Origin: Lingula anatina
Lineage: Eukaryota; Animalia; Brachiopoda
Direction of reading: 5' to 3'
NCBI GenBank assembly: GCA_051362555.1
Contig: CM120641.1
Location: forward strand, 42,538,401-42,602,400
Length of the DNA stretch: 64,000 nucleotides
Part shown: positions 26,301-64,000 of the stretch, piece after piece
Layout: the number at the start of each line of letters is the position of its first letter
Numbering within the stretch: position 1 is the stretch's first letter
Notes under the pieces: generated by a model
Told to the model about the DNA's origin: nothing
Seen by the model: only the letters and a program-made list of their open reading frames with translations
The model's database searches: none
Translations under genes and position numbers: made by a program

Positions 26301-26360
26301 TTAAACGTTATTTCTAAGATGTTTATTTCTTTATTCTAGGCCAAGAAGCACCGAGCGTTG

Positions 26361-26460
26361 ATGGGGTCGGTGAAGATGCCCAACATACAGACAGCAACAA
26401 AATGGACGCTGCTTCTTCTGCTGATACAATTACCAAACCATATCTTAGCACAAATAACTC
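26361..26460 (+). CDS. Cadherin signal-peptide exon
   Basis: Acceptor ttctttattctag at 26339. MGSVKMPNIQTATKWTLLLLLIQLPNHILAQIT, donor gtaagt, phase 1 matching the next exon (PCTAKG…). Not in the ORF track because it is <60 aa. Confidence 0.85.
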
Positions 26461-38400: not shown

Positions 38401-40242
38401 TCTTTTCTAGGCTATTGGCTCATCTGGTATTACCTACAAGTTTGTCAGAGGCAACGAGGCCAACCGCTTTGTCCTTGACCCCTCCACTGGTCGTATTACC
38501 ACCAATGCTGTTCTGAACTATGAGGCAACCCCTAGGTACCAGCTAGTGGTGACCACTGTCCAGGGGGAAAATGGCGGACCATCCAGCTCGGCCACTGTGA
38601 ATGTGAATGTAGTGGTAAGTGTGTGTTTTTGGCTCTTGAATGTGCCAACCGTTTCATGTATTTTCCCAAACAGCTAATCACAGTGTGGTGTTATTTGCTC
38701 CAGAATATGGTTCAGATGCTGTGTTATAAGCTGTCAAAAACTGGGAAAAGAAAATGTTTTTGTTTCATATTCAGAGCTATTGAATTAATGAGAACAGCAT
38801 TGTTTTTGGTATTTTTCATTCTGAAAAAAGTGCCTCTGTAATAAACATTCTTAATTGTTGTCAGTTGCACATACAAAAATATGATTATTGATAATAATCA
38901 AGTTTTTATGAAGTGGGACAAATTCACTTATGGATAATTAACTGAAGCATCTGTTTTATTCCCTACACAGGATCAGAACGACAGCCCCCCTACCTTTGAT
39001 GGGCAGAACTTGAATGCAGAAGTGTTGGAGAATGTGGACCTGGGACATTCCATTCTCAGAGTATCCGCCTCTGATCCTGACCCTGTACGTACACTAATTA
39101 CATGGGCCTTAGATTTCCAGAGAACTCGTAACAATCTTACCATACAATGGGAGGGGGGGTTTAGACCTTTATATTGCAAACTCATTAGTTTCAGCAATTT
39201 TAGTGTTGAAATTCCAAGGAGAATTGAATTTTAGTTTTGTACAGGTAGTTTTATAATAGGTACAATGCCCATTGCCATGTATCTTTAAATAGATAAAAAA
39301 AATCATAAAAAGCAGTGTACCTTGTGAAGATATCACTAATACTTCCATTGTTGTTTTTTCAACTATACCTCTAACACAACCTACCATTATGATAAAACAA
39401 TGAATCAAAGAAAGCATTTGTTCAAGTCTTTTAGTTTTAAAGTGTGTTTTATATGCAGCCAAAGCAAGATTTGCCATTCTTCTGCTCTTTTCTCCAGGGT
39501 CCATATGGTCTTTATTACCGTATTGCTAGTGTCTCTCCCAGCAGTGGCTCAGCACTGTTTTTCATGGACTCTGAGAGTGGAGATCTCAAGACAAAGACCA
39601 ACCTGGCCAGGGATAGATCTGTGTCTAATTTCCGGGTAATGTTTCTTTCATTATGATAGGTAGTATATTTAAGATGCCTGTTAGTACAAAGTTGTCCCTT
39701 TTTTCACAGAAAAAGCTCCTATGGATGAATTCATAATATCTTGAATATTCAAATATATTTATTTTTAAAGCACCTTTATCATGTTGTAATGACAGAAATT
39801 TATGATAATTTTATGTCAGATTTTAAATTTAGTTCACAGTAATTGTGTTTTTTTTTTCAGGTTGTCATAAGTGCTTCAGACACAGCACAGCCACCTCAGT
39901 CAGCCACCGTAACAGCCACAGTTACAATAATCAGAAATATGCACGACCCAGCGTTCAACCCATCCTCAGTGGGAGCAAGCATCAGTCACTCGGTGGACGT
40001 CGGAACACTACTGCGTACAATGATAGCCACAGATTTGGATACACGGGTAAGTGATTTCCACTCTTAAAGCACATTTATGTCTGGTTTTGTTGGCTTACTG
40101 TAGCACCAATAGTAGGTGACCGCCAAATCACAAGGAGCCAGAGCATCTTTAAACAACAACAGGCAAATTGACAAATTTTTGGAAATTATGGTGTGAATTA
40201 TTAAGAAAAGACTGATGTGCAATACACATTGTTTAGGATAGA

Positions 40243-40313
<71 letters not shown>

Positions 40314-43300
40314 TTATTATTGTTATACCAGGTGGTAAATGGCCCCACAGTATGAGTTACCTTCTCTTTTCAATTAAAATTTTTATATTTATTTAATGCC
40401 AGCCCGAGTTCAGATCAGTGAAATATTCCATCATTGGAGACGGGAAGGCCATGGATCTGTTTGATATCAGTGACACTGGGAGGATTACTGTGTCAAAAAG
40501 CCTGACAACAGATTCTGCTTTGACATACACGGTGAGTTGAGGAGGGTACCACTGTACCCCACATTAAGTCTGGCATTTAATGTCAACTTGATGCTGTCAC
40601 TCCTGACTTGCTATAGTTATTAAGAAAAAGAATGTATTCTTAAATGAATGACTTGTTGCACTGTCACTTTCATGTTTGGTAGGATTAACGCTTAACATAT
40701 TTTTTTATTGAATTTTATTACTGTCTTTATAATTTTTAGGGTTAATTTTTTGTGCCATTTTGATTTGGGTTATTGCATATATACATGGACAAATACGTTT
40801 ATTACAATTATAATACTTGTGACATTTGGTTCTTCTTGCAGTTTTATGTAAAGGCATTTCTGAACAATATTCCTGAACATGAAAATAAGACAAATTGAGT
40901 AACCATGGTTAAGACTGTATCTCAGTTCTTACCACGTAAATTTTCAAAGTAATAATCTCTGTCATAATTTTTGACTTTAAGCTAAGAGTATTGGCAACAG
41001 ATGGCGGCGGTCGCACAGGTACAGGAACAGTCACCGTAACAGTCAACAGAAACTTGAAAGCACCCGTGTTTCAGCGATTTGTGTATCCAGCACAAGTGGT
41101 TGACAACAAACCTCTGGGAGAGCCTTTCATCAACCTTTTAGCTATTGATGAAGACGTATTGGTAGGTTTGAGCAGATTGTGTTCTTGGAGATATCTCTAC
41201 TTAAGCCTTGTCATTTGGGAGCCCTCCACGCATAAAATGTCAATTTTGAGACTGCAAAATGTTATGTTATTTGATTCATGTTATGCTTTTCATTGCTCAC
41301 ACACATCTCAACAAATAAACTAACCCTCATATTTTTGAATTCTCACAAATGCTCAATTTTAAGTAATGTTAAAAGTCTATGATTCAACATTACAGGCTCC
41401 TCACAATGAGGTAGAATACTACCTGTATACAGGCGGTAACCAAGGGTCCACTGGTCAGAACAGTGGTAATCAGGTCTCTCCAGATGCTGGAGACTATTTC
41501 TATGTGGACAAATACACTGGGGAGATCAGTTTGAGGAAGTCACTGGCCACAGATCCTTACAATAGGACAGTGTTTTTTGTGAGTTTGAATCATTACAACT
41601 TGTTAAATATACAGATTGAAAGTTTTATAGTATTTTACCGATGTGTACTTCAAGAATTTATGAAATAATTATTTTATACAGAACTATTTTTTTATTTTGT
41701 GTTACATATAAAGTCCACTGTCATGAATTGCACTGAGACATCTTCACTGTTAAACAAAAACCACAAGTTCATGTTCATATTTAAGATTTAATTCTTTAAA
41801 AATAAGATAAGAGACAAGCAGAATTTTAAAAAATACTATTACATGCATTATGAATAAGAGTGATGTGTGAGATAGTAGTTTGTAATGTTTTAATCCATAT
41901 GATTAATTTGCAAATTGGTTTCCTGTCCTCAGTTCTATGTCGTTGCTCGTGATCGTGGGCAACCTCAGCGTAAAACCAGCACCCCTGTCCCGGTACGAGT
42001 CGAAGTGAAACGCAACTCGCATGCACCAATCTTCTTCCCTGGCCAATATGCGAAGACGATGAACCAGAATGCAGTCATAGGGACAACTGTGGTTCTTGTC
42101 AATGCAACTGATAGAGATCCTGATGTAAGTCATATGCTGAAGGTGAAAATCAATAATGTTACCTTTATAGTTGAGACAGAATACAAGATAATTCATTGAA
42201 ATTTCAGGATTGTCATTTGCTTTCAGTGAAAATTAAGGTATATTTGTAATCCCACAACATCATTATAAATAATTATATGCTTACTTTGTTGTTAGGCTTT
42301 ATGCAAATAGTTGTATGACTCAGATCCATGTATTTCCATAATTCTTGTCTACAAACATAACCACTGTTTTTTTTTTTCTTATCAATATTTTAAGACAATG
42401 ATCACCATGTATTTTTTCTTTCTAGAATGCTCACAATGTTATCAGGTATGAAATCATAGGAGATGGCACTGCAGCTCAGTATTTCTCTATCAACCCAGTA
42501 ACGGGTATGATACGAATAAAGAATAACCTCGGCAGGGATCCCACAGATGTGTACAATGTTCGTGTGATTGCACGGGATAACGGCAATCCTCCACGCACAG
42601 CCACTGCCATTGTTAAAGTGACTGTCAACAGAAATTTCAAGGCCCCAGTGTTCAACCAGTCTTCCTGGGATTTCAGAATCTTAGAGACACAAACTCTGGG
42701 GGTTGGCATTGGACAGGTGCATGCTATTGATGAGGACCCACAGGTATGGTATGGTGGTACGGTGGCCTGCAGGTGCAACTTGGCAGAATTACCTCTAAAA
42801 CAATTGTTGTGCTTTATTTTTCTCAATAATTGATTTAAATCAAGAGAAGCATCATGTAACAACATAGACCAAAAAATACAACTACACAATACCTTCATAC
42901 ATATAAATTCAACACAGACTTGTTATTTATTGTTGGACAAAGGATAAGCCAATCACACTTATTCACCATTCATTCCTTCATTCAGTTGACTATATTTTGA
43001 TGGCAAATCTTATTTATATTAAAAAACAAATACAAAATATAACTTCTCTCTGCCTAATTAAAAAATTAACTGAATCACACTTTCGTTCATGCTATTAATA
43101 CAGAAAAGCTCAGAATTGTGAAAATGAATAAAAAAGTAATTTGTTAGTAACTGGATGATATCTCTTTAGACTCAGATCATGATTGTTTTGAATAAATGTT
43201 TTGTTCTTTTCACCATCCCAGCCACCACATAATACAGTCAGATACTTCTTAGTTGGGAATGACAAGGCAAAGGAATATTTTGGTGTACGCCCAGACTCTG

Positions 43301-46300
43301 GTCAGATTTACGTCAAGCAGGCTTTGGTTTTGGACCCAAGTAAAACTGACATTTACAATGTAAGATGGAGAAATTATACTGTAGCAATTGATAAGGATGA
43401 CTCTGTCTCTGAATTTTGACTTTAGATGGAAATGTTCAGTGCAGTTGATTTTTTTCACACTGATTTTCATCTCAAGTCAGTCAAGTAAGAGATAGCGTCT
43501 TCTTTGATACATTGTTTATTATACATTATACTTAATTAAAGTTGTTTATTTCACATTAAAGCCGCAGGAGGATGATGCAGATGCAGTAAGATTTCATCTC
43601 CAATTTAACAAAAGCATTGTCCTTGTATTTTGCTTCCCAGTGTCAATAGTTATGTTCTAGTGTATTTTGCATGTCACTATCACTTTGAAGATAATTGCAT
43701 CATTTTCTTTCTTATTATTGAGGTTATCGTTTATGAGTCTTGTGTCTATGTTACATGACACTTTTGTTAATTACTTTGTGGATATATAAGATTTTTGCTT
43801 CCACAGAACGTTACATGTTTAAATTCTTTATAATACAGCTTCAATATGCTTCAACCAGCATTTTAATGAAATGTTTTTTTTTTAAATCTTGATCACATTA
43901 TAATTGTGAGCATTATTTATTTGGTATCTACATTTTTCCCTAGCAATAGATAATAGTTTTTCTGGTATTTGCTATTTATATATTTTTTTTTTATGTATTT
44001 AAGAAGGAATCAGTTCAAATAATTTTATTTAAAGGGTCTTGATTCTATGATGACTGCATTGTAAGATAACTAAGTATTGACACACATTACAGTCATCATG
44101 GTTTAGGATCCTTTTGAATGTGTATTTTATGTTCCTCACTTTGTCCTCACCATTTGGTTTTCAGTTATTTATTGGTGCACAAGACTTAGGTTCTCCACAG
44201 CGTAATAGCTCAATCACGGTCCCTGTGTCTGTCACTGTGCTGCGTAACAAATACCCACCAAGATTCACTGGCCCAACAAGGAACATCAGCATACCTTACA
44301 ATTACAGCACCAATGTCAGAATTATTACTGTTACTGCCACAGATGGAGATGATCCGGTAAGAGAAGAAGTTAGCTACATAAATTTTAGACTCTTTGTATG
44401 GATATTTTCATTTTCATCTTTATTTGTAGTCTGATTTTGTTATTTTTATTAAATCATAGGACATATTATTGAATACATATAGAGTTATAGTATGTTTACA
44501 CTAGGTGTTTTTGCACAGGCATGAGAAAGTATACATAGGATCTGTAGAAATTATAGTTCTTAATAAAGTTGATGATTGGACTGCTTAGCTCATTATAAAA
44601 AAACTAAGCCATAAATGAATTAAAGACAAATAAATGACATAAAAGACAAAAATTATTGTATAAGAATGTTTACTTTTTTGGCTCGAGCACATTTGAAGCC
44701 CCCAAGCAAGAATTTTTTAAGAAACTAGACATTATAGTATAGAGTCTCATGACCTGTTATCCTGAAATTGGTATTCGTAATATCTGTCTATGAACAACAA
44801 ATTTTGCTTAACTTTCCAGGATGGTTTTGGACATTTAACGTACAACATCATTGGGGATGGGCCTGCAACTCGTTACTTCCATGTTGGTGAAAATACAGGA
44901 ATTATAACTTTGAGAGAGACCATTCATAATGACACCAACTCTGTTTACACTGTAAGTTTATAAACAGGGGTCTATCACTGAGAGTCATTTTATGTATTGT
45001 GCTGAGATAGTCATTTCATGTGTTTAACTGATATATCAAAAGAGTTGACTGTGTATTAATACATAGCATACTTTTGAAAAATAACCTGCATTAAATTTTC
45101 AATGGATCTGTCTTGTTTTATAAAATGATAAGTTGTATCTATTTTAATTCAATTTTTTTTTCATTGTTCACAATTCCAAAGAAAGTATGGAATTTTGAAG
45201 CATATACTTTTTAATGTTACTTTAATACTTGAAATTTGTAAATACATTGCTACACAGTCACATTGCTTAGACATTTAAGATATTTGTCCTTGCTTTCCAA
45301 TAAAGGCATCGTACTGCTATCATATTATTCATACTGTGCAGTAACTGATTTTATTTATCATCCTATAGATTCGTGTAGAAGCTGTGGATAATGGCTACCC
45401 TCCCAGGCGTGACACAAGGATTGTGACAGTACTAGTAAACAGGAACTTGAACCAACCAAGGTTTGCTATTACCCAGTACACGGCAGATATCTTGGAAACA
45501 CAAGGACTTATGACTGAATTCCCAACATCTCCTGGTGACATAGTGTGTTATGATGTGGATACCAATGTAAGTATACAACTTCACCCACTACATTTAACAG
45601 TTTTAAAGCTAACACAATGCAGACTTCATTTGTCTCAACTAACTCAATCTCAACAAACACAATCCCCCCAAAAAGATTAAGTATGACATATTATAGTCTC
45701 CTTGTAAATATGTGTAACTGTTTAATATCATCTACCTTAATTTTTTACCCCTCGATGTCATCAAACACAATATCATCCATATTTGTTTAATATTGCATTT
45801 CTGACTGAGAAAACTAACCAACAGAGTGATGCCTAATATACAATTCATTTTGTCCTGAAAAGTTATATAACATAAACATCTGGAAAATGATTCAATACAA
45901 TTACTTTGATAAAAGTAATCTTTTAATAATATGAAGAATACTGTCATGTCTGGTTGATGTGCTGTGAGTGTAATTTGTCCAAAAAATTGAATAATGTAGT
46001 ATTTTTCCTATTTTTCAATCTCTTCATACTTACAGACACAGCTGGAGTATAAGCTGGTTGGGGAGGTGACCCCAGGAGGACTAAGCTACTTTGGGATCAA
46101 TAAAGCAACTGGGAAATTATATGCAAAGACAGATCTCAGACTTGGGGACAGGGAGACATATAGTGTAAGTTTTCATAGCTGTCCCATATTTCAAATCTTT
46201 TTGTCCTTAATGCTGTGCATATCTATTTATCTATTTTATATATAGATGAAAATACATATAGATAAAAGACGTGTAGAAAACCATTAATTTTCTTTCTGCA

Positions 46301-47120
46301 TATACAACTATAGGACAAACAAGTTCTTGTAGGTCTTTTTCTCTGCAAGTCTTTAGTTTTCCAAAATAACCATGTGTCCACCAATCTTCACTTCCAGTTT
46401 TCTGTGAGGTGTTCTGACAATGGTAACCCACCAAAGGAGAGCTCAAATCTTGCTGTGGTAACTGTGAGAGTCCATCGTAACCTGCACGCCCCGAGATTTA
46501 CCCAGGGTGTTAATTATGCCACCAATCTGACTCAAGACACAGCCCCAGGGACATTTGTGTTTGATGTGGATACCACAGATGATGATGACAAGGTAGAAAT
46601 GCGTTATTGTCATTATCTCACCATTTTTTAGCAACAAAATTTTATGAATTACTTTTACCTTCCTTATTTGTCATGCAGCTTTCTGTGATGAATAATAAAA
46701 ACTTGATATTAATCATTTCATCGGACTCGATTTTGTCACTGTGAGTTCAAATGTTACATTGTTACACACTGAAACATTGTAGCATTTGACACAAATTATA
46801 AAACAGATTGAAAGCTTATTTTTTGTAGACTAAGTGTCATTTTAAAATACAAACTCACATATCTTTTAATTTAAATTACATTTGCAGGCACCATTTAATG
46901 TTGTGCGATATGAGATTGTTGGTGACTTTCCATCTCCTCAGTACTTTGCTATTGATGAAACTACTGGACGTATCATTGTTAAGGAAAATCTTACTGGAGT
47001 GGGAGCTGGTGACTTTAAAGTGAGTAATAAAAATTGGTTTTAAAACTTTGGTTGATTCGATTCAATAAGATTTGGTTTCCTTTTGATACTGTTGGGTTTG
47101 TTAAGTGAAGACAAGTGTCA

Positions 47121-47171
<51 letters not shown>

Positions 47172-50100
47172 TCCAGATTGCAGTTAGAGCCTATGACGGT
47201 GGTGCCCCTGAAAAAAGTACTATCCAAGTTGTTACTGTGTCAGTCAGTCGCAATCTGCACTCCCCTGTTATTGACGAACCACGATCTCTCTCAGATAGCG
47301 TGCAGATCTTGGAGACCCTTGGGATATACATTACCTTTTACAAGGTCAATGGTTCAGATAAAGATACCACTGTAAGTGTTATTATAGCTCAGTTTTGAAT
47401 TTTCATTGTTTTTGAAATGTTTATTTGTTACTTTCAAAAATAAGAAAATGCCAATATTATACAATGCTCATATTTGTAAGTGTAATCCACAGTGTTAATA
47501 CAAGTGTACTTTCAAAGTCAAGATGTTGCCTTACCTGATATTTTGGATAGCATAAGTCTCATAATAATGTAATGACAAATCCACCAACACATACATGATT
47601 CATTAAAGCATTTTAGCAACAATTTGCCAAGAAGAATTTCACAGCTATTAATTTCAGTATAACATGAGACAAGGTGGCAGTTACTAACTATAACGCACCC
47701 ACTTAACAATTTGTCATTTATTTCCCTCTACCAGAGCCACAAATACAAGAGTTTCACTGGATACATACAGATTTTGACGTCACTACCTGAGAATATTTTT
47801 GTGCAGTGAGGATTTATTTGCACATGACCTAGCTAGCTTCTAAGTGGCGAATCCAGAGATATTTTCTGACTGTCTTCTGAATTATCTTTGTTGATCCATT
47901 CTCCATTTTTGACTGTCTTATGGCAGAAAAAATTAGATGCCGGTTAATGTTCACTTGAAAAATTCTGATGGTCTTCCCAATGCCCAGAAGACGGCTTCCA
48001 TCTACTCCTTCTAGAGAGAGTATTGCAGATTTATTACAATTTTACATATTGCTTTTTCCAGTCTCCAGCCAACAAAGTGAACTATGAAATAGTGGACAGT
48101 TTGGTGGAGAGGACCTTCTTTGAAGTGAACCCTGACACTGGCGAGGTGTACCTCAGAAGGAATATCCTTGGACAAACAACACCTGCATACACAGTAAGCA
48201 TTATTATCTTTTTATTATCATGATGATGGTTACAGGAAGAGTCCATTCCTGCATGTCACATTTTTAAATTCATAGCCTTAGATAAATTATTGAAAAATTT
48301 AAGATACTGACCATAATTAAAATCAATGAAGTTATTTAACTTACAGATAACTATTTAGTTATACTCTGCTAATAATTTAACTTAAAACACTTAAAATTTC
48401 TTTGAAAAAGAGAATTTTTAGTTAAGTTTTAAAACAATATTTCACAAGTCAAAGCTCAAGTATCAATGAACTGCAAATTCTGAAGTTAGTTTGAAAATTT
48501 TGTTTGCAGTTTTTAAGGTAAATTGGTTTGATTCAAGAAATGCACTAATGTTAGGAGATAAATATAATTTCCAAAAGAAATATTAGATTCTCTACAAAAG
48601 CTATTTTTCTATATATTTTATTTAGAAAGCTGGCACAGGTAGCAGTTGTAAATAACTGTGTTACACACTCAACTTTCAGTTTCTATATTTTGGGAAAATA
48701 ATAGTACGTAAAACATTTTTCAGCTGAGAATAAGGGCAAAAGATGGTGGCCTAGTACCCCGTTACTCTCAGACCATGACGTTAACTGTGAGAGTTCTACG
48801 CAATCTGCACACACCATATTTCACCAGTGAGCAGTATCACAAAGCCACTATTCCACAGAGTATGCCAGAGAACAGCCCAATACTGGCAGTCACAGCTGAC
48901 GATGATGATCAACCAGTAAGTCACATTTGAGTAAAAAAATCTGTGTGTTTGAGGGTGTAAGTTTTACTCAATGAAAAGGTAAATAGCAGCATAAAGTGAC
49001 TATAAAGTTACATTTTATTTAAAAGATTGGTTTGAAAGACTTAATTTTTCAGTTTAATTAAATATTAAAAAAAGTTAATATTTAAAAATATAAAAAAATT
49101 AATACTTAAATGCAAGGAGCAGATAATTTTTAAATAAGATAAGTTTAATCTCTACTTTTGATTATAATTTATTTTATTTAAGAAACATACCATGATATTC
49201 ATTTCTCATTTATATTTATTCCTTTCAGCCCTTCAACCGTGTGTTCTTTGAGCTTCTTGGTTATGACCCAGCCCCAAACTTTTTCAAAGTCAACAAGTTT
49301 ACTGGCCAGATCACAACAGCGCAGGATCTGAGCCGCGACAGCACGGCTGTGTACACTCTGCTGGTTCGTGCATATGACACAGGCGTGCCAGCAAAGACAA
49401 ACACCACAGAAGTCGTGATCACAGTGGATCGTAACCAGAGAGCACCTGTGTTTGACCCCACCTTCTATGAAGAGACAGTACCCGAAATCATCAACCCAAG
49501 TCAGACTATTGTGACAGTGTCTGCTACAGATGATGACACACGGTCACCATATAACGATGTACGGTACAAGCTGGCTGGTAGGTATGAGGACAGGGAATAC
49601 TTTTATGTGGAACCAGAATCAGGGCGTATCACTGTGCGGAAGTCACTAGCACTAGAACCAAGCAGGGCTAGGATGTACTCTCTGAAAGTTATTGCTTACG
49701 ACTTGGGAACCCCCAGCAGAGAGTCCCAGGTCCCTGCAACTGTTAATATTACTGTGGCTCGTAATGACCATGCCCCATTCTTCATAAATCTGCCTGCGAA
49801 CATCAGCGTCAGGGAAGATGAGGTGCGGTACACGGATCTGTTCAAAGTGGAAGCCAGGGATGATGACACAACGGTGAGTGCCTCAGCTGAACTGATTATG
49901 ATTTGACATTTTATATACAAGTACAATGGTCAAGAGAAATCAGGAAGATTTTATTAATTGGTAGAGCATGTGGGGAGCAGAATCTCCCATTTTGATTTGG
50001 AAAATGGAAAGGTCAGCTTTGGAAAGAAAACTGAAGGTCATGCTTCATTTTTAATTCTGATCTACATTATTTTCTAAAGAATTAAAAGTGATTATGTATA

Positions 50101-53100
50101 ATATTGATATGATATAAAAAAGCAACAAAATCAAAATATAAGTTTTTGTTTTTCAAAGGACTGAAAAGAATGTTACATCAAGAAATATTCTCCTACGTCC
50201 TTTATAGATGATCAAGCTTCTGTATAACATTGTTTTATGAAATTCCAGCCACCATTTGGCCAGTTTACCATGGAAGGTGTTGGAATGGGCTCAGCAACTT
50301 CATTCTTTGAAATTTTGAGCAACGGGCAACTGCGCAACCGTGCTGACCTTCGAACTAGCCCTCAGAGAGAATACACATTCAATGTCCAGGCCAAGGATAG
50401 GGGGCAACCACCCAAGACAGCCTCAGGCGTCATCTATATCACAGTGCTGAGAAACCTTAAAATGCCTATAATGTCAAGTACCAGTAATACTACTACTATT
50501 CTTGAGACTCAAACTCCAGGTGTTCCTATATTTAGAGTCTTGGCAACAGATGAAGACAACAATCCTCCAAATAACCAACTGACGTATAATATTTCGAGGG
50601 TGCTTGAGGGACCAGTGCAGACATATTTTGGCATTCAACCTAATGGTGATATTTATGTGAAGCAACCACTGACATCTGAACCAACTAATTTGCCTCAGTA
50701 CAGGGTAAGCTGTAAATAATTGTGAATTATAAAATATCATCAATCAACATAAAAAATACTATTTTGTTTTTTATTCTTGAATCAGATCCACAACAGACAT
50801 TTTAATTAATCTTATTTGCCTGTTAGTGTAGTTTCATTCTATTTTTATTACCAGTAACTTAAACCAAAAATAAAAACGTATTAACAGCTAAACTATCCAC
50901 TTGTGCTGGTTTTAAAATTGGTGCAGTCACACCCAAAAATAACACCTAACACAATTCTGTATAGCATAACCCATTGCGATGCTGTCACACCTAACACAAT
51001 TCTGTATAGCATAACCCATTGTGATGTTGTCTCACCTAACACAATAATTCATTGCAGTTCCATGTGCTGGCCACTGATGGAGGCAGTCCTCCAAAGGAAG
51101 CTCCTGTGCCAACGACAATGATCATCAACGTTATTCACAACCTGTACCCTCCAGAGTTCCTCAACAATACTGTGGAAGTCAACATCCAACAGACAGCTAG
51201 AGTGGGAACGATAATTGCCAGAGTTTTTGCCAGAGACAGGGACAGTTATCGACCATTTAATACTGTAGAGTATGACATTAATGGTGATGATACTGCACCT
51301 TTGTTCTTCTCTGTGAACCAGCAGGGTCTGGTCACTCTGTCATCCACATTGGATACTGCCACTGCTGATAAGAAAACATACTATGTAAGTTTCATCAAGA
51401 TTTGTCATGTGAATTTATTTTCCTCCCTCTTTGCCATTATTTGTCCAACAAACAGCCCTCATAGTATCATTGTAACATATTTAATCCTATAATGACATGG
51501 ATGAAAATTATAATCTTCTGAAATCTAAGGCAGTATCTTTATGTTTAATTCAGATGGACTTATATTGGTCATATTCAATTGCTCCAGAAACATATTTGAA
51601 TTAGACAATGAGGATTTTTTTTTGTCTTATCAGATACGCGTGCGTGCAAGAGACGGCGGACAACCACGTAAAGAAGACACCATGCAAATCATCGTGCATG
51701 TGAGTCGCAATCTAAATGCCCCAATCTTCACAAGGCGCAGTTATCCTGGAAAGATTAAGGAGACTATGGGCGTGGGACAGTTTATTTTAACGGTTTCAGC
51801 CTCTGACCAAGACTCTGGTCCCCCTGAGAATACCATCACCTATTCCACCAACAGCGATACTTTTGCTGTGAATGCTGATACTGGAATTGTCACATTAAAG
51901 AAATCTGTGTTGGGATCTACACAAACCTCCTACACAGTGAGTATATTGGAGTTGTCATTCCTTGCTCTGAATAATATCCAACATCAGCATCACATCTAAC
52001 ACAATATAAAATTCTAGTTGCATGCAAGTCTGTGATTGGCTTTGCTGTTGTCACATGTTATATGTCACATGACCAAGCTTGAGAAAGTGAATATACAAGT
52101 AGTTCATTGTTTTAGATAATAGGTACACAAGTAGATTGAACACATAACAATGCATATTGTGCTCCATAGAGTATCACATCTGACATGATATCAATACCAC
52201 ACAACATACACAAATCTTAATAGGCCACTTCAAAAACCTCTATTACCGAAAGTACATTTTTTACCTTGTACAATACTATGTTAACATAGGTTGCACCTAC
52301 CTGCACCTACCAACCAACGCAAAAGCTCATTTTTATTAAATTTTTCATGAAAACTCCAAATCCCTATGATGCATGCTACCAGTATTTGTTCCTGTATTTC
52401 AGTTTAATGTTATTGCTACGGACCAAGGCGACCCACCCAGGAGCTCCAGTCCATCTCAAGTATCAATTACCGTTGTACGAAATGCAGCGCCACGGTTCAT
52501 AGGCGAGCCGTATTCTACCAATATAAGCCAGTACACAGAAACCAATGTGGCCATTTTCACAATGAATGCAAGGGATCCTAACAATGACCCCATAGCAAGA
52601 GAGTTCTATCAGCTTACATATACAATAATCGGAGATGATGGCGCTCCTGCCTACTTTGACATTGGTACCAATGGTGTTGTCACTGTAAAGGGAGATTTGA
52701 CGGAGGATGATGCTGTGACCTATCAGGTAACTATAACTGTAGCTACTTTGTGTTATCTTTTACATTATATTTATTAAGTGAAAACATTAGTACTACATAC
52801 AGCAATATATTTCTAGTTGGTTAATACAGCAAAATGTAACACTGACAGCAGTAGCGTGGCCATTCTTACTCTTTGCTCTATTACTAAGGCAAGACCAACT
52901 GAAAGTATATGATCTTATTTTCAAATGGAAATTCCAGATTGTCAAAAACAAAAATGTCCTCATTCCAACGCCTGCCAGTTAGGTGCACAATATATCATGT
53001 TTGACACGTTTCACAAAGAATTGTTACAAACAACAACTATGTCTCCCTTTTTCTCCACAGCTGCGTGCCAGAGTCTGTGACGGAGGAACTCCAAATTTGT

Positions 53101-54885
53101 GTGATACATCTGTCCTGAAAATTAACGTCATACGAAATGAGAATGCTCCCATTTTCCCAGCCAGCTATCAGCGCTTTTCTGTCAACATTTCCGAGATCCA
53201 TGATGTTGGAAGAGTGGTTACCCAAGTCCTAGCTGAGGATGAGGATGGAAGGGTAGGGTTTTCTCATTATATCAGACTAGTCAATGAGAAATTTTTATGT
53301 AAAATATATGGGGGTTAACATTTAAAGATTAAAATTTCATTTATACTTTAGGGTTGTAGTTTTGTAGTCCCATATGTTTCTTTGAATACAGTTATTGCTC
53401 TCAGCTCTCATTTGGAAAAAAGTGAAATTCATTTCATACCTGAAAATACACAGGCAAATTATTTTTGGCTGTTAAATATTCATTAAATCATATATTCACA
53501 ATAACAATTATTGAAGGAAGATAATACTTGGCATAAGATGCAATGATTCACTGTGTTTAGCTAAGACAGTATTAAGTTCCCTTGTCGTTGCAGCCTCCTC
53601 AAAATGAAGTGGTGTACACGCTTGCTGGAGATTCCTTGGCAAGGCAGTACTTTGCTATACGCCCAAGCTTACAATCCAACTTTGGAGAGGTGTTTTTGAG
53701 GAATTATTTGACTCAGGACCTGGATCGTAACACTGAATATACTGTGAGTCTCAACCAATGCTGATATAGCATACTCTACACAGTTCTATTGATTGTAGAC
53801 TTAACCTTCTTCTGCATTTTTGTAACATTTTTCAAATTGATTCAATTTATGCTGCAGACGACTCTGTCAGGTTCAGACCTTATACTTGTTTCTTTTGTTG
53901 TTGCTATTATTATACTAATAAAATTGTCAGAATAGACGCTTTTTCTTAACTTAAAGTAAAAACAAAAGTGTCCAAAAAATTTTAATGTAGATGAAAGATG
54001 ATACAGAGGAAAAACCACTAATCTGCACCTGCCATCTATTATGTTAAATATTTACGTTGTATTATTATTTTTTTCAACAGCTGACTATAACAGCCCAGGA
54101 CAAAGGTACCCCACCACGTGATGCGTCGAATTATGCCTTGATTACTGTCTACGTCAGTCGCAACAATTTTGCCCCAAGGTTCATTCAGCAGCCGTATGTG
54201 GCCAATGTCAACATCACTGATGGGGCAGGCAGTTATGTGTACAGAGTTTCTGTAGAAGATAGAGATGATAGTGTAAGCACTGAAGCATTCTGAATCTGTG
54301 TGTATGCTGTTATGTATGTGGGACATTGGTTCAAACAGTTGTTATTGACATAAATGTGTCATTAATGCAATTTAAAAATTATCTGAAATTTTGAGCAATG
54401 ATGTATCTGGCATTATAATGTACAGAATTAGTCAGAATAAGTAAAGTGGCTCCATAATTATGCCTTCTTACTCATTTCATAACCTACATAAATATTCCAT
54501 TTATATGTTTATTAATAAGTAGTTTTGATCTGATCCATGTTTATTAATGAGTATCTGATTGAGAATCTGATTGATCCATGATTATGAATTGATGAACTTG
54601 AACTTGTAGGCTCCGTTCAACCAATGGACCCTGCACATTATTGGTGATGAGGAAGCATCAGCATTCTTCAACATTTCTCAAGATGGAGTTATCCGCCTGA
54701 GACAAAACCTTCCATCGTCTGTCAGGGACTTCTACATGGTACGTGCCGATATAATTTTAAATTGTGCTTTGAAATGGTGTATGCTAAAAAGTATTATGAG
54801 GGAATGTATACAAAATTGTACAGTTATAATGAATGTATAAAAATTCATTAACTTATGTAAGAAGTGTGTATAAGCATACAAAGGC

Positions 54886-54981
<96 letters not shown>

Positions 54982-57900
54982 GCATATGATAATTGGAAAT
55001 TATATAGTTATATACACAATATTATGTGATGATAGTTTTGAATTATAACAAACTTATATTAGGGTTTTAGCTAATTATCATATTTCGGTGTTCTAGGTCC
55101 GTGTTGAAGCAAGAGATGGTGGACGGCCCTCAAGATTTGCTACAGCTACTGTCAAAGTGAACATCAATAGTAACTTTGTCACACCTTCCTTCAACCACTC
55201 ACGGGACATCTACGCCAATGTCAGAAATAACCAGCCTCTGTACCAGCCATTCCTGCAGCTGTTTGCCACTGATAATGACATCAGGGTATGTAGTGTGACA
55301 TTATGATAATGGTTTCTACAGAAACTGCTTTACAAATATAAGCAAATAAAATGTTGAGCTTATTTTTATGTAGAAAAGCAGCTTATGATTACAAAATTTG
55401 TCTATCCCTTACGAGAAAGTCCTATGGGATCCTAAAGATTTTTTCATTAGGGATGTTTATTTCTTGGCATGGTGACTTTGTAGCATTTTTTAATTTGTAA
55501 GAAAAAAATCAATGTCTAGTTGTAAAACTCTCAAATGCGAATAATAGATATATAGATGGTTTAGACATTTCAGAAGTAGTTTTTGTGCCATCATCTTCTC
55601 TTTCCTGTTTGATTTTTTATTTATTTTACCATGTGTTTCTAGCTCCAGGACCGCACTCTTGTCTATAGCATTGAAGGAGAGGGACAGGCGGAGGAATACT
55701 TTGGTATAGATCAACAAAACGGAAAGATCTATCTACTGAAAACTTTATTGGGCACAACAATCAATAACTTTAAGGTAAAACATCACCCATAGGCATTTAT
55801 GTCAGTGGCAACATGCTAACAATATGTCTAGATCTCTTTGTTTGCCCAAATTGTAAAGACCATTTAAAATTGAATATTGAGATGGATATTGACAATATTG
55901 TTATTTTTTCCACATGACACACCCACATTGAATGAGGTATTAAAATGGCATGCTGTATTTACAAACTAACAGAAAAATATGCTTGTGTTGCTTTTATCAC
56001 ATTAATTGTCTGTAAATTTATTAATTTTTTTATTGCACTGTTACATTTGTGGGACAGAGGGCAGTGCTGTTTTATTACCATTTTTTTTAAAAAGTTTGAG
56101 ATATAATAATTGCTGAATTTTTGACATGACAGCTCCAAATAGACAAATTAAGTGAACACTTTCTCATACTGTAAATCTATGAATATATGAAGTTTATTTT
56201 TTTTTCCAGCTGATTGTGAAGGCTACTGACCAGGGAACACTGCCACGATCTGTGACCACCAATGTGTACATCAATGTGCTCAGGGACTCAGGACTGCTAG
56301 GTTTCAATGAAACTATTCGCTCAGTTACCATACCAGAGACGCTGCCAGTGGATGAAAATGTGATCAGACTTCAGGCGTCACCTGGTGTGAGTAGACACAA
56401 GCTAAGACCTGGATATTGTCTTTCTTGACACTAATTATAACTGCACTCTAGCTACTGAAATGTACTAGACCTGGGGCATCTCTTGGAGATGACTCGTAAC
56501 AGCATCATACCGGTTGCTATGACAAAAGTTGCACCAACATAACAGAAGTTTTTTTAAAATAAATTGTTATATTTGTCACCATGATTGCTTATATATGACC
56601 CAAAACAACACAGTATCATCACCTTTTATACAATTGTTGCTTTCATTTCTTATAGCAAATAATGTAGAAAGAAAACTTTTTTCATATGGCAAAAATAAGG
56701 CATTACACCAAATAGTATGTCCAAATAAAATTATAAACATTCTGTCAACTTTTCAGCCTCGCATAACATATCATCTGACAGGATATGATTCAGGGCCCAA
56801 GTTTTTCAAAGTTGATTCTGTGACAGGACAGATCAAAGTGAGATCAAGCCTGGAGAGAGATTTGGCAAAACAAGAGCAATATACTGTAAGTGACAAGCAG
56901 TGATAGAGAAAGCATACTGTTTTAACAGTGTTTCAAGTTGTTGTATGGTTTCTTTTCATTGAAATAAACATAATTTTATGTGGAGACTTTGGATCGCATG
57001 AAGTAATTGATTAGCTATTATCACTGTAATTGTTGCCCCACATTACTGCTTTATACTGATTATATAATTGGTAAAATTATAGTGTAAACCTTAAGGTAAA
57101 CTGACATTCATCTTTTTACTGCCTCATCTACTATACGGAAATTAAATATCACTTCCTGAAGTGGAAAAATGTGCAGAAAGCAGAAAAAGTTACATACATA
57201 ACCATTCTCCAAGAAAATAGTAGATATATAGAACTCACTGTCTTGTTCTTATTTCAGCTTATCGTGGAGGCAAGGAAGTCATTTGAGGTTAACATTCAGA
57301 CGGCAACAACCACAGTTCTGGTCAACGTGATCAGGAACGAGAATCCTCCATTGTTCAACCCAAGATACTACCAAAAGAATGTCACTGATACATTTGCACT
57401 TGGAGGACTTGTGGTACAAGTGATTGCTTCTGACAGAGATGGAGTAAGTTGTGAATATAATAGGGATTTTTTATGATAAGCAGGAGAAAGGATGTATCTG
57501 CAACAGTTACAATTAACATTAACATTGCCAGTATAGTGGTACTGTTGTATACAGTTGTACTTGTCACATACAATTACAATCTTAGGTGTCTTGTGAAATA
57601 GTGAAAAAAATTTAAACTGAGAAACAAGACACTTATAATCAAAAGTTTCATTTTTTCCCATCCCTTATTGTCAAAATGTAATTTGAGATATAACAAAAAA
57701 ATTACAGAAATTTTTTGGGGTTGCTCTAAAAATCTGTCTTCAGTGTGAATACTTATGTTTGTTGACCACTAGGTGGATCTTTGATCAGCAGTTGTACGAA
57801 CCAAGTCACCATCTTCCCCGTCATGCTTTATTGTTTTGCTCTCCTTTTTTTCATTTTAATATATTCCTTTGTTTTTCATTTTTAGCACTCTCACCTATGG

Positions 57901-60900
57901 TGTCCATATTTTTTGCACCTCTCTCCTAGTTTACCATCAATTTTGGATGATAAAAATTAAAACTTTGTTAGAAAATGTTCAAAGCACATTCAGATGAAAC
58001 TATATGATTCTGCTTCATGGTGATATGCTTTGAGACACAAGTTGGTAATTGATGGAAAGCCACACATTGATGAAAACTTTAATTTTTTCACTGCAGGATA
58101 AAATCACTTATGAGATTCCCAATACTGTCAGTAACAGACTTGGAAGCAATTACTTCTATGTCCATCCAGATGATGGAATTATTTATTTGAAGCAAGGATT
58201 TCCACGACAAGGAACAATGAACATTACAGTAAGTTCTCACCAAGAGATAAAACGTTCATAATAATTTCTTAAATTTGAATAGATAGACTTGTATTGAAAT
58301 ATATATTCATGTTGTCGGATGATTTTTTAATGTATTTTTGCTCATTTATTTGTATTTTATTAGTAGATTTCTGTTTTTTTTTGTGAAAATTATGAAATAT
58401 AAGAAATTAAAGCTATCTGCCATGCTTTTTCCATGAGATGTGAAAAACTGGACTAGATATGATGTATTTGATGAATAGGTGACAGTCGTGACTGCTCGGT
58501 TCTAAAACTTGGACATTATTTTTTTTTTTCAACTTTTCTATTTGAGAAATTAAGCCTTAATTATGAAGCTTAACATTGGTATGCCTTCAACAACACTATA
58601 AGCACTCATATTTGTACCAAACATTTTGCTTTTCTTCTTCAGTTCAGCGTGTTGGCTTATGACAAGGGTGGCAAGAATGACACGGCTATTGTGAGGGTCT
58701 ACGTCATCCCCGACCCCACGTCCCCAGTATTCCTGAACACCCCATACACCCTGAATATCTCAGAGACAGTGTTACCAGGGGTGGTCATATATCGCAGAGT
58801 CAGGGCTGCCCTCACTTCGGTAAGTAAAATATGTAGTATTTTTTAGAACTAAAAATACTTATTTCGTATCGTCAAGTTGGGATGATGGAAAATACAGCTT
58901 CATTAGAGAATCATTAGCGGCACGTAGATGAAACTACTCTGCTTTGTAGTTTATTTTAAAGGTAATTTCTGCAAGTAGTCAAATTAAGAAATAGTTATAT
59001 TGAACTACAGTGCTATTCAAAGTCAGTATTGAACTTGAAGTCAGTTTAATAACTATAATATCACTTTGATACTCTTTTGTTTCAGGGCACCTTGCGGTAT
59101 GAACTGGCTCCCTCTGGTATTGCACCAGTTTTCTTTAACATCAATAGAACCACTGGTGATATCAATATAAGATATGACCTCAGGGCTGATAGACAACTCA
59201 TCTATAGAGTAAGTGTAATGTGGTTTTGTGAGCCATTGTCAGGATCACAGTTTTCAAAATATTATTATCATAAATCTGAAAAGGAAAATAGTAACTTCTG
59301 ATATCTTTTTGGAAACAATTAGTAGAAAATGCCAAAAAATTAAGGTGTGTCATGAACCTCTTATTTTTTAAAAAAAATTTTGTCTCTGATTTGATGAATT
59401 CAAAACTGATACATTATCATTCTAGCTGAAAATCCGTGCCTTTGATGTGAACAGTCCGGAGCGTGAGAGTTATGAAGATATGATCATCTATGTGCAGAGG
59501 AATGTCAACCCTCCTGTGGTGTATGTGCCAGACAGAGCATACATAAGTCTTACAGTCAATGAAAGTCTGCCTGTGGGGTCCCAAGTCTTCCAGATCTTTG
59601 CTAATGATTCAGATGGGGTAGGTGTTTTTAATTTTAAAGAAGGTGACATATGATTATTTTGATTCCCAAAATTATGTTGTGTTTGAGCTTTTCAGTATTA
59701 AGCATAAAGTTCAGCTTTGCCATAATTGTCTTGCTTCTCATTTTGATATTTGTGCTGTTAGTCATGGGTTTGAATGATATGCTTTACACACAGCATCATA
59801 ATACATGTAGTAGCAAATGTTAATGTGTATCAAAGTTGTATACAATATTATCAGTCATGCTGGTTTTCAATTTTGAATGAGAAGAATCAATCAGTAAATG
59901 CTTCTGTTGTATTTTTCAGGACAATCTGATCTATGAGTATTTTGCCAATACTCTGAGTAGTGCCAGGCAATGGTGGTACCTCAACCCATCCACTGGCACG
60001 ATTACCCTTGCTAGGCCTCTCTCTGATTCTAATGTTCGCCAGTACAGAGTAAGTTTATTCTGAGGCCACATTCAACCTGAGTTGGCCAAGTCATTTCCCA
60101 AAAGATAAGAACATATAAAGCTTTTAAAAACAACAGTAGCCATAAATTTACTTTACCTAAACTGAAAACTTTGTTTGTGTCCTCATTTATACCATATTGC
60201 CTTTTAAAATAACCATGTTTCTAAAACATCAATAACATCAGATACGGTTTTCTTCACAGGACTGGATAGCACTGTATGAGGCCAATCATAATTCCATGTT
60301 TTATTTCCAGCTTTACATCATAGTGAAGGATGATGTTATCCCACATGAAGTCCAGAGAATGAGCAGTATCATCAACGTCGACATCAGGGTGTTGAAGAAT
60401 GTGTTCCCACCAACATTTGGAAACGACACCTTCTCTGTGACCATCAATGAATCCTGGCCTATTGGATCCACTGTGATGATTATGCAGGCTATTGACTCAG
60501 ACACAGAGGTAAACTAGCTCCTACAGGGATTTATTACATATCTAGTCTCTGCTTCTTAGGGAGTTAGTGGACTTGTAAGCCCAAGGGAATATATTTGTCA
60601 GTGATATTACTGTGGCATGCAGTATTTACTACTTGGAATATTTAGGAGGTTTAGAAAAGTACAACTGTAACCATGGGCTATATTGGAAACAATTTAAAAG
60701 CATGCAGTGTTCTTCAAATGCATGTATAGTATTTGCTGCATATGGCAACTACATGAAGACAGTATTCGAGTTACTTTTTGATAAGTTGTCCTTCAAACAT
60801 TTAAATCATGTGAAAAAATATATTCCACTAGTTGCCAAACAGCTCTTTTAATAATGCTTGCCATTACTTTTTCAAATTACAGGAGATATACCGCACAGTG

Positions 60901-63900
60901 ACATATAATATTGTCGATGATGGCAGACGTCCCAAATTGTTTGATATCAACCAGTACACAGGGGTCATCAGGGTCAGCAACAACCTGACTCTGGATGATA
61001 ATGAATACTACACTGTAAGTATGAGGCTTTTTTTAACTGTTTTGAATATTATGTATTAAGTTACAATTGAGATTCTACACCAAATTCAGTGAAAATGTTC
61101 CAGTCTCTAACTGAGTTAAAACAACTTACACTGATCAGAATATGAAAGTTAAAAATACACAGATTTAAGTACCTATGTGGAATATGTGGCTGTATTACTA
61201 TATAATCAAACAATTTCATATAACTTGTTATGCATCTATTTCCATATTATTATCAGTCTTGTTTCAACATGTAATGTAAATATATTTCAGTTAAGTATAT
61301 TAGCCTCAGATGCAGGCACCCCAGCCAAGACCACCAATGCTGTGGTTAATGTGCGAGTTCTACGCAACTTATACAGACCAGAATTCAATCCAGCTATATA
61401 TACTGAGACCATAAGAGAGTATATAACTTTGGGTGAACCGTTCCTTTATCTCAACACAACAGATCTGGATTATAGGGTAAGCTAGACACAATGGCACATC
61501 TAGCACACCCAATTAAGGTGCCAGAACACCTAACACAATAGCAGATCTTACATACTGTCACACCTAACACATTTACCAAGATGAGCATATCACTTTCCAG
61601 GCAAAACATATTGTTTTTTAATTCCTGAAGACAAAGTTACACCTATACTGCTTAATCCAGATTGTTTTATTGTCCACTTCCTCAGCCATTCCTAGAAAAT
61701 CTGGACATCTTAATCATTGAAGTCTTTTGCTCTAAGTTTGATGCAATACTTACTTAGGTGAATGCAGCTATTTTTACATTAATTTATTAGCATTGGCAAG
61801 ACTTTTTCAGTAGGTAAGAAAACTATACTCCTAGTTTTGCAAACAGGGTGACTGCAAAAGTGGACATTACGGACAACAGGTTTTCGGATTTTTTTGCAAC
61901 AAACTTGACAATGAGAATACTTATCACCACATAAACATTTTGAGAATGTCTGATAGACAGTGAAATTTCATGCTGAGAAGAATAATTAGAAAACTACCAT
62001 TAGGGCCATCTGGTTGTTTCTGTACTAAGTAGAACTGCAGGCCAGTTGTTTTGTTTTTCTTTTTACAGATACCATACAACAGGGTGTATTGCAGGTTTGC
62101 ACCAGGCACAAGTGCTAAAGTGCGTGAATTTTTCAACATAAATGAGAGGGACTGCTCTATATATGTGCACAAGGACCTACGAGCTGATTCTGCAAGGACC
62201 AGGAATATCAACGTAATGCAATAAAACAAAAAGCTTGAACTAGAAAATTGGTTTAATTCTAGTTTCAGTGTATGAATTGTGCAATATGAAAAAAATTATC
62301 ACTACAGATTTTGATTTTGGAAAAGGCAACTTGTTGCTCAGATAAAAGAAATATTTATTTCTGTCTACACCTTTTCCCTCTGTAAAACATTTCAACTGTG
62401 ACAGCATGATTTTTTTGTAGAAAAGATTAGCTGTAGCACCATAGCTTAGCTCTAGAAGTGAATTGGCAGTAATGAAAGCTATTAAACATCTAAAAGAGAG
62501 AAAATATTTTAGAGTATAAACCATTTGTGTTTTATAAGCAGTCATTTTGCGTTGCTTTTCCTTCATCTTTTGTATAACTAATCTAATGCTTTTCTTTTGG
62601 CTTATGTTATATGGGCAGAGCAACCTGTTTATATCTGTTGCTCAAAAATAATTTATATTCTAATGTGATTTTCTGCTTTCTTCCCTCAGTTTTTCATACA
62701 AGCCTACGATGGGGGCAACCCAGCACTCTACTCTCTGATCAATGCCCGTGTGAATGTTTTGATAGAGAGGAACAACCACTGCCCACAGTTCAATCCCAAT
62801 GGTTACACCACTGGAGCAAACCAGACTGCTTCCAATGGCAGTGCTGTGTATGTGCTGCAGGCTCTTGACAGAGATACTCGCGTAAGTTTAAGAACAATAT
62901 CTGGATGTGCATAATAGGATTTAACTTATTTAGGTTATGCCGTGCACAGGAGACCTTTATTTTGGCAAAAAATAGAACGGATTTTCCTAGAAATTTTGGT
63001 AACTTCTTCTAAATCACCAAGGTATACCCTATCCAAAACTGTGGAGAAATTTGCAATCTTTTTATCCCTTTTTTTTAGTTTAGACTTCCAAACGATAACT
63101 CAAATTTTGACACCTATAAGAAAACCAAACCAAGTTTTAATACTGTATATAGCGTATAGGCATACTGTAAAAATGTGGATTAAATACTGTTTCAGTACTT
63201 GTTAATGACACCATGACCTTTTTCCTTCCAGTCTCCTTTCAATACTCTCAGCTATGAGATAATTGGGGATGGGAGAGCACCAGCATTCTTCCACATCAAC
63301 CCTCTGTCTGGTAGAATCTTCCTCAAAGAGAGTTTGCTGCCTGACACAGCCGAGACATACTCAGTAAGTGGTCTCTAAGAGTAGTGTTTTCAGGAAACCA
63401 AACAGGTGTTTGTGTCATTGTCCATGTTAGGTTGATAAATTAGAAACCAATGTATGTGTACACAGTGTAAACTTCGTGTGCAAGTGATGGTGATTTCAGG
63501 TAACTATAAAATTACTGTATTTATTTATGATATTATTTTATGTACAGATGTTAAGCAGTCCATTCACCCATAGTGATTTTCAGTATAAAAAGGGGGTAGC
63601 CATGGAGTAATGGTTAGCCATGGACTAAACAAGCATGTAATGAAAAAAGATTTACTTAGTACATTTCTTATAATTGAATATATAACTCATGATTACATCC
63701 TGTAGGTTCGTGTGGTGGCTAAAGATGGAGCAGTTCCACCTTGCTCGGCCACCACAGTGGTCAGTGTTAGGGTCAGCAGGAATGACCACGCCCCAGTCTT
63801 TGTGGGTTCCCGTTCACTAAACATTACCATACTGGAGACACACAACAGACAGACGCCTATCAATGGAGTGCCTATTACAGCCAATGATATAGACTCTCAG

Positions 63901-64000
63901 GTAACTACTGTAATTTGGGATATGGATGAATAAATAGGTTCTTAGGATTGTTGTATATATGTATAACTCTGTGTTTGCAGGTAAATTCAGATTTATTTTT
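26361..64000 (+). CDS. Giant protocadherin-15/Cad99C-like cadherin, at least 34 EC repeats, >3,770 aa; 3' end (including any TM) lies beyond the window
   Basis: Phase-consistent GT-AG exons: 26361-26460, 29459-29539, 29826-30013, 30359-30427, 30773-30877, 31183-31290, 31694-31813, 32369-32527, 33026-33119, 33382-33494, 33772-33975, 34318-34449, 34731-34886, 35118-35320, 35722-35854, 36121-36203, 36450-36549, 36920-37051, 37357-37415, 37893-38139, 38411-38614, 38971-39084, 39498-39635, 39861-40046, 40403-40531, 40982-41161, 41396-41578, 41933-42124, 42426-42743, 43222-43359, 44165-44356, 44820-44951, 45369-45566, 46036-46164, 46398-46592, 46888-47019, 47177-47371, 48062-48193, 48724-48915, 49229-49873, 50249-50704, 51058-51384, 51634-51936, 52403-52726, 53061-53252, 53594-53743, 54081-54272, 54610-54738, 55097-55285, 55643-55774, 56210-56386, 56757-56885, 57258-57443, 58097-58228, 58643-58819, 59086-59208, 59426-59617, 59920-60048, 60311-60508, 60883-61014, 61291-61476, 62069-62212, 62690-62881, 63232-63363, 63706-63900, 63981->64000. 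Cadherin motifs DKNDNAPEF, LDYE, LDRE, DANDNSP, DINDNNP, ATDxD, AxDxGxP. Confidence 0.95.
32369..33975 (+). CDS. EC2-EC3 region carrying the PCDH15/Cad99C signature
   Basis: ILDGDDLPPVFTYAGCVAYEDLCINPQYTARV…GVLNIEPEPIVAVDRD…IKYSFVDGTPSNYSSYFQID…AEE…NPPSI. The DGDDL.P.F linker followed by a two-Cys loop (C…..C.NP.Y.A) is what I recall from PCDH15/Cad99C EC3. Confidence 0.8.
40243..40312. repeat. (AAT)n microsatellite
   Basis: Directly visible, intronic. Confidence 0.95.
47122..47170. repeat. (TTA)n microsatellite abutting a splice acceptor
   Basis: Runs directly into ttccag (47171-47176). Confidence 0.95.
50943..51045. repeat. 45-bp tandem repeat (~2.3 units) in intron 3' end
   Basis: cacctaacacaattctgtatagcataacccattgygatgytgtc starts at 50943, 50988 and 51033. 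Confidence 0.9.
54890..54977. repeat. (CT)n microsatellite
   Basis: Directly visible, intronic. Confidence 0.95.

Follow-up and report, generated by a model that had tools for sequence, protein, structure and literature searches.

A Cad99C/PCDH15-type cadherin gene of Lingula anatina with a long array of EC9-like repeats and predicted reduced-calcium junctions

The 64,000-nucleotide stretch of the Lingula anatina genome analyzed here (hereafter the window; assembly GCA_051362555.1, contig CM120641.1, positions 42,538,401 to 42,602,400) carries a cadherin gene that is a variant of the Cad99C/PCDH15 lineage and not a standard member of it. Cad99C has 11 extracellular cadherin (EC) domains with one EC9, whereas the window encodes at least 26 junctions of the EC9 type. 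The explanation that we consider probable is a lophotrochozoan Cad99C/PCDH15 protein whose ectodomain was lengthened by tandem copying of EC9, with junctions that would each combine one Ca2+ (at site 3) with an arginine, and which likely forms a long extended filament at the cell surface.

The gene model was assembled from GT-AG splice-site candidates, with one acceptor shifted by 6 nt to agree with RNA reads. In this AT-rich window, whose plus strand shows short frames resembling cadherin, it comprises 65 exons (26361-63900, plus strand) that encode 3,776 aa free of stops, with GT-AG borders at all introns; the coding sequence continues past the window end, and the C-terminus lies outside the window. 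The protein begins like a signal peptide and continues through 34 complete EC domains into EC35, so that at least 35 EC domains stand in place of the eleven that are standard in the Cad99C/PCDH15 group. All 42 introns from the switch in linker type onward are in phase 0, vs 16 of the 22 before it. The features are as follows.

26361..26460, plus strand: first coding exon, signal-peptide-like N-terminus with an inferred start ATG; covered by reads, with a loose read end upstream at 26338
29459..38985, plus strand: EC1-EC8, colinear with Cad99C and PCDH15; canonical and atypical linkers mixed, introns in all three phases
38986..39938, plus strand: EC9, the likely template of the array, with the first RN linker at its end
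39861..63900, plus strand: array of 25 complete domains, probably EC9-derived (EC10-34), and the start of EC35; 26 non-canonical linkers, A/B alternation, extends beyond the window
49229..49873, plus strand: largest array exon, with two RN linkers and one whole domain; served as a search query
56210..56386, plus strand: junction EC27-28, Asn replaced by Asp, EC28 without DxD and AxD; candidate Ca2+-free joint
58643..58819, plus strand: junction EC29-30, no Arg, Asn replaced by Asp, EC30 without DxD; candidate Ca2+-free joint

A previous sequence-only reading of the window had reported linkers 1-8 as DKNDN, DGDDL, TVNVN, DANDN, DTRSD, DINDN, DLQDS and DQNDS, followed by 26 consecutive linkers without the DxNDN calcium motif, mostly of the form V-x-R-N. 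This observation is confirmed by the alignment of the repeats that it had called for and by scoring of their Ca2+ ligands: exactly 26 non-canonical linkers extend from EC9-10 (Asn at 39936) to EC34-35 (Asn at 63781), none has DxNDN, 21 of the 26 read x-R-N, and the other five are the variants named in that reading. LDRE/LDYE is lost, with D remaining in 1/26 junctions and E in 2/26, and DxD (24/26 and 23/26) and AxD (24/25) are retained; the ligands at the domain base are mostly gone and those of site 3 persist. Within the linker itself, the first Asp is present in 1/26 and the second in 2/26 junctions, the Asn in 24/26, and an Arg precedes the Asn position in 22/26. Overlooked until now were the identity of the linker Asn with the Asn of DxNDN, a residual acid at the last DRE position (16/26 junctions; 14 D, 2 E) and the surviving xE (14/26). 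In the domain alignment, the RN linker is separated from DxNDN by a one-residue gap, that is, it is one residue shorter than the canonical linker. In a control of 16 long cadherins (those with names being Fat, Dachsous, CDH23-type and CELSR) with 260 junctions, 207 junctions were canonical, 2 were RN-like and the longest non-canonical run was 7, and a run of 26 is therefore not due to chance. A Mya protein labelled dachsous-like (P0075) begins with at least 7 consecutive linkers that are neither canonical nor RN.

Transcription of the gene was assessed with RNA runs deposited under the same species label and aligned to 26201-46200 and 44001-64000. Reads of run X7 occupy 28/30 bins of the first stretch, and those of X7, X8 and X9 occupy 30/30, 30/30 and 29/30 bins of the second; runs X1, X3, X4 and X5, with 1-33 reads each, were uninformative. 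Among the 30 RNA joints listed, with 24 others beyond the listing, 25 are exact GT-AG joints and all 25 agree with the final model (24 before the acceptor correction), the remaining five lie close to model introns, a few bases off and with extra letters in between, and the joint across the switch (39635/39861) is absent from those listed. Most reads match the window at 92-99%, which indicates that they come from diverged animals, and the 75 listed read differences include 61 synonymous vs 11 non-synonymous codon differences, as expected under constraint. A joint that links intron 34 to exon 52 (46374-56802), with six letters between and 8-12 reads in each of three runs, possibly reflects a paralog or a mapping artefact. 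A short intronic element at 47846-47919, deeply covered and rich in loose read ends in each of the four runs, is likely a dispersed repeat.

The assignment to PCDH15/Cad99C, already proposed in the sequence-only reading, holds. Insect Cad99C is colinear with window residues ~110-1120 at 34%, after which the alignment ends, so that EC1-9 correspond in order, and flounder PCDH15 is colinear over ~1,000 aa at 31%. When EC1-4 of the window were used as a query, the best 30 of 424 matches were, among identified records, Cad99C, PCDH15 or array-bearing relatives. The N-terminal linkers pair one to one with those of Cad99C/PCDH15, including the D-x-D-D linker of EC2-3 and the atypical EC3-4 and EC5-6 linkers. 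The group is further characterized by a position on microvilli or stereocilia and by CDH23 binding or an EC2-3 dimer. When solved structures were searched with the sequence of one array exon, CELSR1 ranked first; repeats add up in such a score, and the rank was not read as evidence of orthology.

Relatives were collected by three homologue searches, a 26-linker-exon profile run against 1.84 billion representatives and a name look-up for 10 matches; the homologue searches were length-limited and matches were taken from the top ranks. At least five RN linkers were found in 45 of the 439 proteins retrieved and at most four in the other 394. The assignments available for 43 of these 45 are to bivalves, gastropods, Lingula and Tubulanus, that is, to molluscs, a brachiopod and a nemertean. 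No cephalopod or annelid is among the named matches listed, from which, given length-limited searches and top ranks only, nothing follows about absence. Many array proteins are partial models, often labelled “protocadherin Fat 4-like”, with several per genome. The switch at the EC9-10 position recurs at linker 9 in 11 of the 14 relatives aligned to the window start; two others seem shifted by one domain and one has no N-terminal block. The number of ECs varies from 28 in one complete model to ~58 in a partial one, and partial models reach 6,465 aa without a C-terminus. The complete model, Potamilus P0249, has 28 ECs and ends in EC10, EC11, a MAD12-like membrane-adjacent region, one hydrophobic segment and a Cad99C-like tail, the matches of which are, among identified records, family members and insect Cad99C; over the Pfam cut-off it contains cadherin-type families only, with no EGF or LamG domain. 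The C-terminal features of Cad99C (EC10, EC11, membrane-adjacent domain, transmembrane helix and tail) occur in relatives P0249, P0335, P0343, P0182, P0194 and P0201, and the EC10, EC11, membrane-proximal and tail regions of relatives match Cad99C with E-values down to 1e-16. The domain order of P0249, together with the other relatives, places the array inside Cad99C/PCDH15, between EC9 and EC10.

Several family models per genome are found in Solemya (P0331, P0333, P0347), Patella (P0182, P0198, P0221) and Tegillarca (P0336, P0338), and in Solemya two of the models carry an N-terminal block each, which suggests tandem paralogs. Several of the oyster models P0064, P0065, P0099, P0107, P0115 and P0063 finish in an EC5-like domain without a membrane segment, and Haliotis P0177 carries an EC1-5-like block at its C-terminal end; these may be shuffled or secreted paralogs or faulty gene models.

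The derivation of the array from EC9, and not from EC10, is strongly suggested by sequence comparison. A profile built from window EC10-34 alone was scored on 477 domains of 33 reference cadherins, and the eight Cad99C EC9 domains took ranks 1-6, 8 and 9 (mean 88.8 bits), compared with means of 58.7 bits for Cad99C EC6, 16.6 for EC10 and 47.4 for 379 other domains, the best of which was a Dachsous domain at 81.2. EC9 is also the best-scoring domain within flounder PCDH15 (62.9 bits; EC5 55.7, EC6 52.3). The sequence-only reading had supposed that the EC9/10 junction was amplified, a proposal that fails on the low EC10 score, since EC10 is not part of the repeat. A quick tree of 90 domains, in which 56 of 87 branches remained open, contains a branch (Shimodaira-Hasegawa-like approximate likelihood ratio test, SH-aLRT, 89) that is made up solely of array domains (all 25 of the window and six of Potamilus) and of EC9 domains (those of the window and Potamilus and four from Cad99C); Potamilus post-array domains cluster with Cad99C EC10 (SH-aLRT 93) and EC11 (92). 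Insect EC9 itself bears the signature residues of the array: all 8 domains have DxD, AxD and an acid at the last DRE position (L-x-x-D/E in place of LDRE), and 7 of the 8 end in V/I-R-H. EC9 accordingly has an intact top (DxD and xDx), which serves EC8-9, and a degenerate base that faces EC10, with a V-R-H linker and without DRE; tandem EC9 copies would therefore give junctions without base ligands and with an intact top, as observed.

The array domains alternate between two types, A and B: same-parity pairs in the window score 108 vs 80 (permutation p 5e-5), and in 15 of the 45 relatives 201/220 classifiable neighbours alternate, ambiguous domains being excluded. One pair of EC9 copies probably diverged into A and B and was then amplified as a unit. 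Given the (AB)n alternation, this amplification likely preceded the mollusc-brachiopod-nemertean split, although classifiable pairs are few in the brachiopod and the nemertean. EC11 (41396-41578) has a ~17-residue loop insertion rich in G, Q, N and S that is seen neither in the other repeats nor in the Mytilus alignment.

For the calcium sites, two PCDH15 junctions serve as references. EC9-10 is described as devoid of XEX, DYE, DXNDN, DXD and XDX and of Ca2+, and as bent by ~90 degrees into an L shape by a 3-10 helix in its HPG-E linker and an EC10 loop (PMC5120219). EC5-6 is reported to have lost XEX, DRE and the linker aspartates but to keep Asn, DXD and XDX and to hold one Ca2+ at site 3, and its PPNNQ linker is flexible, with three conformations in crystals (PMC7547225). 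Site 3 is further described as taking the side chain of the linker Asn and a backbone carbonyl independent of residue type (PMC8691648), and linkers with two Ca2+ are reported for PCDH15 EC3-4 (PMC7547225) and PCDH24 EC2-3 (PMC8691648).

The array junctions follow the site-3-only pattern, in which linker Asn, DXD and XDX are kept and DRE and linker Asp are lost. In the 766 RN junctions of the 45 relatives, DxD is conserved in 758/766 and 741/766 and xDx in 722/731, while the DRE Asp persists in 13/761 and an Asp follows the Asn in 18/748; the Arg is conserved in 931/1064 junctions of relatives. Both window junctions without Asn precede the domains without DxD, and in relatives the Asn tends to be kept or lost together with DxD (odds ratio 8) and with xDx (21), values pooled over related sequences; of the 34 proteins that have both kinds of junction, 29 show this direction and 5 the opposite. 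We thus infer that array junctions bind one Ca2+ at site 3. The array resembles EC5-6 in its degenerate XEX and DRE, its lost linker Asp and its retained Asn, DXD and XDX, but EC5-6 is a single flexible joint without Arg and is not the evolutionary source by profile scores. With EC9-10 it shares the position in the protein and the loss of base-side ligands, but not the feature that marks this Ca2+-free, L-shaped joint, a C-terminal domain deprived of DXD and XDX: the array keeps both ligands (97-99% in relatives) and contains no EC10. EC28 and EC30 of the window are without DxD, and in several relatives comparable joints devoid of Asn become frequent in the later, C-terminal portion of the array, possibly forming a second, Ca2+-free class of repeats.

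The suggestion that the conserved Arg substitutes for a cation is plausible, as Arg tends to occur together with an acid at the DRE position (odds ratio 3.4) and with xE (4.0), both values pooled and uncorrected for kinship. It may form salt bridges with leftover acids where Ca2+ sites 1/2 were, although we hold this pairing with less confidence than the single ion at site 3.

Predicted shape was examined with AlphaFold models of relative P0007, ion-free and used as a stand-in for the window protein. For a five-domain model (predicted local distance difference test, pLDDT, 84), the distances are 8-10 Å to several protocadherin ectodomains, 17-24 Å to those of classical and desmosomal cadherins and 39 Å to Drosophila N-cadherin EC1-4. 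The model of a B-A pair (37 aligned sequences; pLDDT 95, predicted template-modelling score, pTM, 0.78) was compared with the solved pairs listed, none of which is closer than 5.0 Å (best TM-score 0.65) and most of which lie at 5.5-7.5 Å, in a comparison made for the array pair alone, where the root-mean-square deviation cannot tell a twist from a moderate bend. The one-residue-shorter linker could give array junctions a fixed, unusual twist or tilt, at which the models hint. From bent PCDH15 EC9-10 (5kj4, 6eet) the pair is 14 Å away, a distance that argues against an L-shaped junction, and there is no helix at the linker in the model. The array would then form an extended filament and not a Ca2+-free bent spring.

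Several results weigh against the reading of an EC9-derived filament with one Ca2+ and one Arg per junction, in addition to the limits of the pair comparison. Against the array profile, EC9 of the window reaches only 63.6 bits, below the insect EC9 domains, and flounder PCDH15 EC9 stands outside the EC9/array branch on a long branch, in a tree with most forks unresolved. The N-terminal block, the array and a membrane end occur together in only one retrieved model, P0249. The five-domain model has a pTM of 0.46, and the known one-Ca2+ junction, PCDH15 EC5-6, is described as flexible and not rod-like (PMC7547225). Finally, xE in 536/733 and Asp at the DRE position (LxxD) in 462/761 RN junctions could support a second ion.

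The last points are the basis of two alternatives. The same origin and one Ca2+ per junction could go with loose, EC5-6-like hinges, giving a long floppy tether with entropic elasticity. EC5-6 takes its three crystal conformations with the same retained ligands, and the low pTM of the five-domain model points the same way; however, the shortened linker, the conservation of the Arg and the pTM of the two-domain model speak against it, the non-canonical PCDH24 EC2-3 linker is reported as straight and rigid (PMC8691648), and we regard the tether as unlikely, though the best placed of the alternatives. It is also conceivable, if quite improbable, that each junction holds two cations, one at site 3 and one at a rebuilt site 2 to which xE, the acid of LxxD and the second DxD Asp (741/766) would contribute, with the Arg structural elsewhere. 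Two-Ca2+ linkers have the precedents of PCDH15 EC3-4 and PCDH24 EC2-3, but both linker aspartates are gone from the array, and the acids covary with the Arg and do not stand alone.

The sequence-only reading had itself proposed that the EC9-10-type junction, Ca2+-free and bent in vertebrate PCDH15, was amplified into a largely Ca2+-independent spring or rod. The position of the switch in the window and 11/14 relatives, the loss of DxNDN and DRE, an Arg that may derive from the Cad99C EC9-10 linker and the two window junctions that look Ca2+-free are in keeping with it; yet the ligands most conserved at RN junctions are those of site 3, which PCDH15 EC9-10 has lost, EC10 is missing from the repeat, and the pair model is far from the bent structure, which together make this origin very unlikely. 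That the array was acquired from another cadherin through fusion or exon shuffling, or is a gene-model artefact, readings to which the “Fat 4-like” labels, the all-zero intron phases and the high-scoring Dachsous domain might point, is largely refuted, because the repeats are closest to EC9 of the same family, relatives are colinear across the switch, P0249 is Cad99C-like on both sides of the array and RNA joints support the exons.

Individual elements of this architecture are already known, as atypical and one-Ca2+ linkers have been described singly and very long cadherins exist in molluscs. Fat and Dachsous giants share length and a database label with the array proteins, but their linkers are mostly canonical with isolated gaps (207/260 in the control). 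Fat proteins carry EGF and LamG domains before the membrane, as is also visible in the Pfam columns of the retrieved proteins, and the common “Fat 4-like” label in mollusc genomes is corrected by the present assignment. A further molluscan cadherin of extreme length is the octopus 77-EC “CDHX”, enriched in suckers according to second-hand mentions (PMC6339937, PMC6110919). No description of an EC9-derived array was found in the literature searched (on mollusc, octopus and invertebrate PCDH15, giant cadherins, atypical linkers and Cad99C), a scope that left out most subscription papers and supplements, so that absence from print is not shown.

PCDH15/Cad99C is treated in PMC2171266 as an 11-domain protein, the conserved ectodomain of which may reflect geometric constraints; a clade with 28 to ~60 or more ECs departs from this rule and pinpoints the expanded domain. 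The same source presents the Cad99C ectodomain as setting microvillus length, perhaps as a scaffold or matrix link (PMC2171266), and by analogy the array protein might serve microvilli or cilia as a long spacer, scaffold or tether, the weakest of our proposals. An EC domain is ~4.5 nm long, and 35 of them then span at least 150 nm. A bolder and only tentative extension, which we think somewhat doubtful, is that lophotrochozoans have a family of giant EC9-derived (AB)n filaments whose junction is unlike that of solved cadherins, with one Ca2+, an Arg for the other two ions, a shorter linker and a fixed new twist, that repeat number sets microvillar or ciliary reach, and that the octopus sucker cadherin is among them. 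Across the clade, the arrays amount to hundreds of natural copies of a predicted reduced-calcium junction, and the effect of one Ca2+ and one Arg on stiffness becomes testable on a two-domain fragment. PCDH15 is a human deafness protein. The neighbouring joint of PCDH15 has been studied for tip-link elasticity and was kept in the best mini-PCDH15 therapy construct, as reported in PMC10133396.

Elsewhere in the window, a minus-strand frame at 34965-35615 was judged antisense noise, its weak Pfam match (E 0.006) being under the cut-off. A SEFIR domain (PF08357, E 9e-19) is encoded at 774-1136 on the minus strand and, with a frame at 1-369, likely represents 3' exons of an IL-17-receptor-like gene that points away from the cadherin gene.

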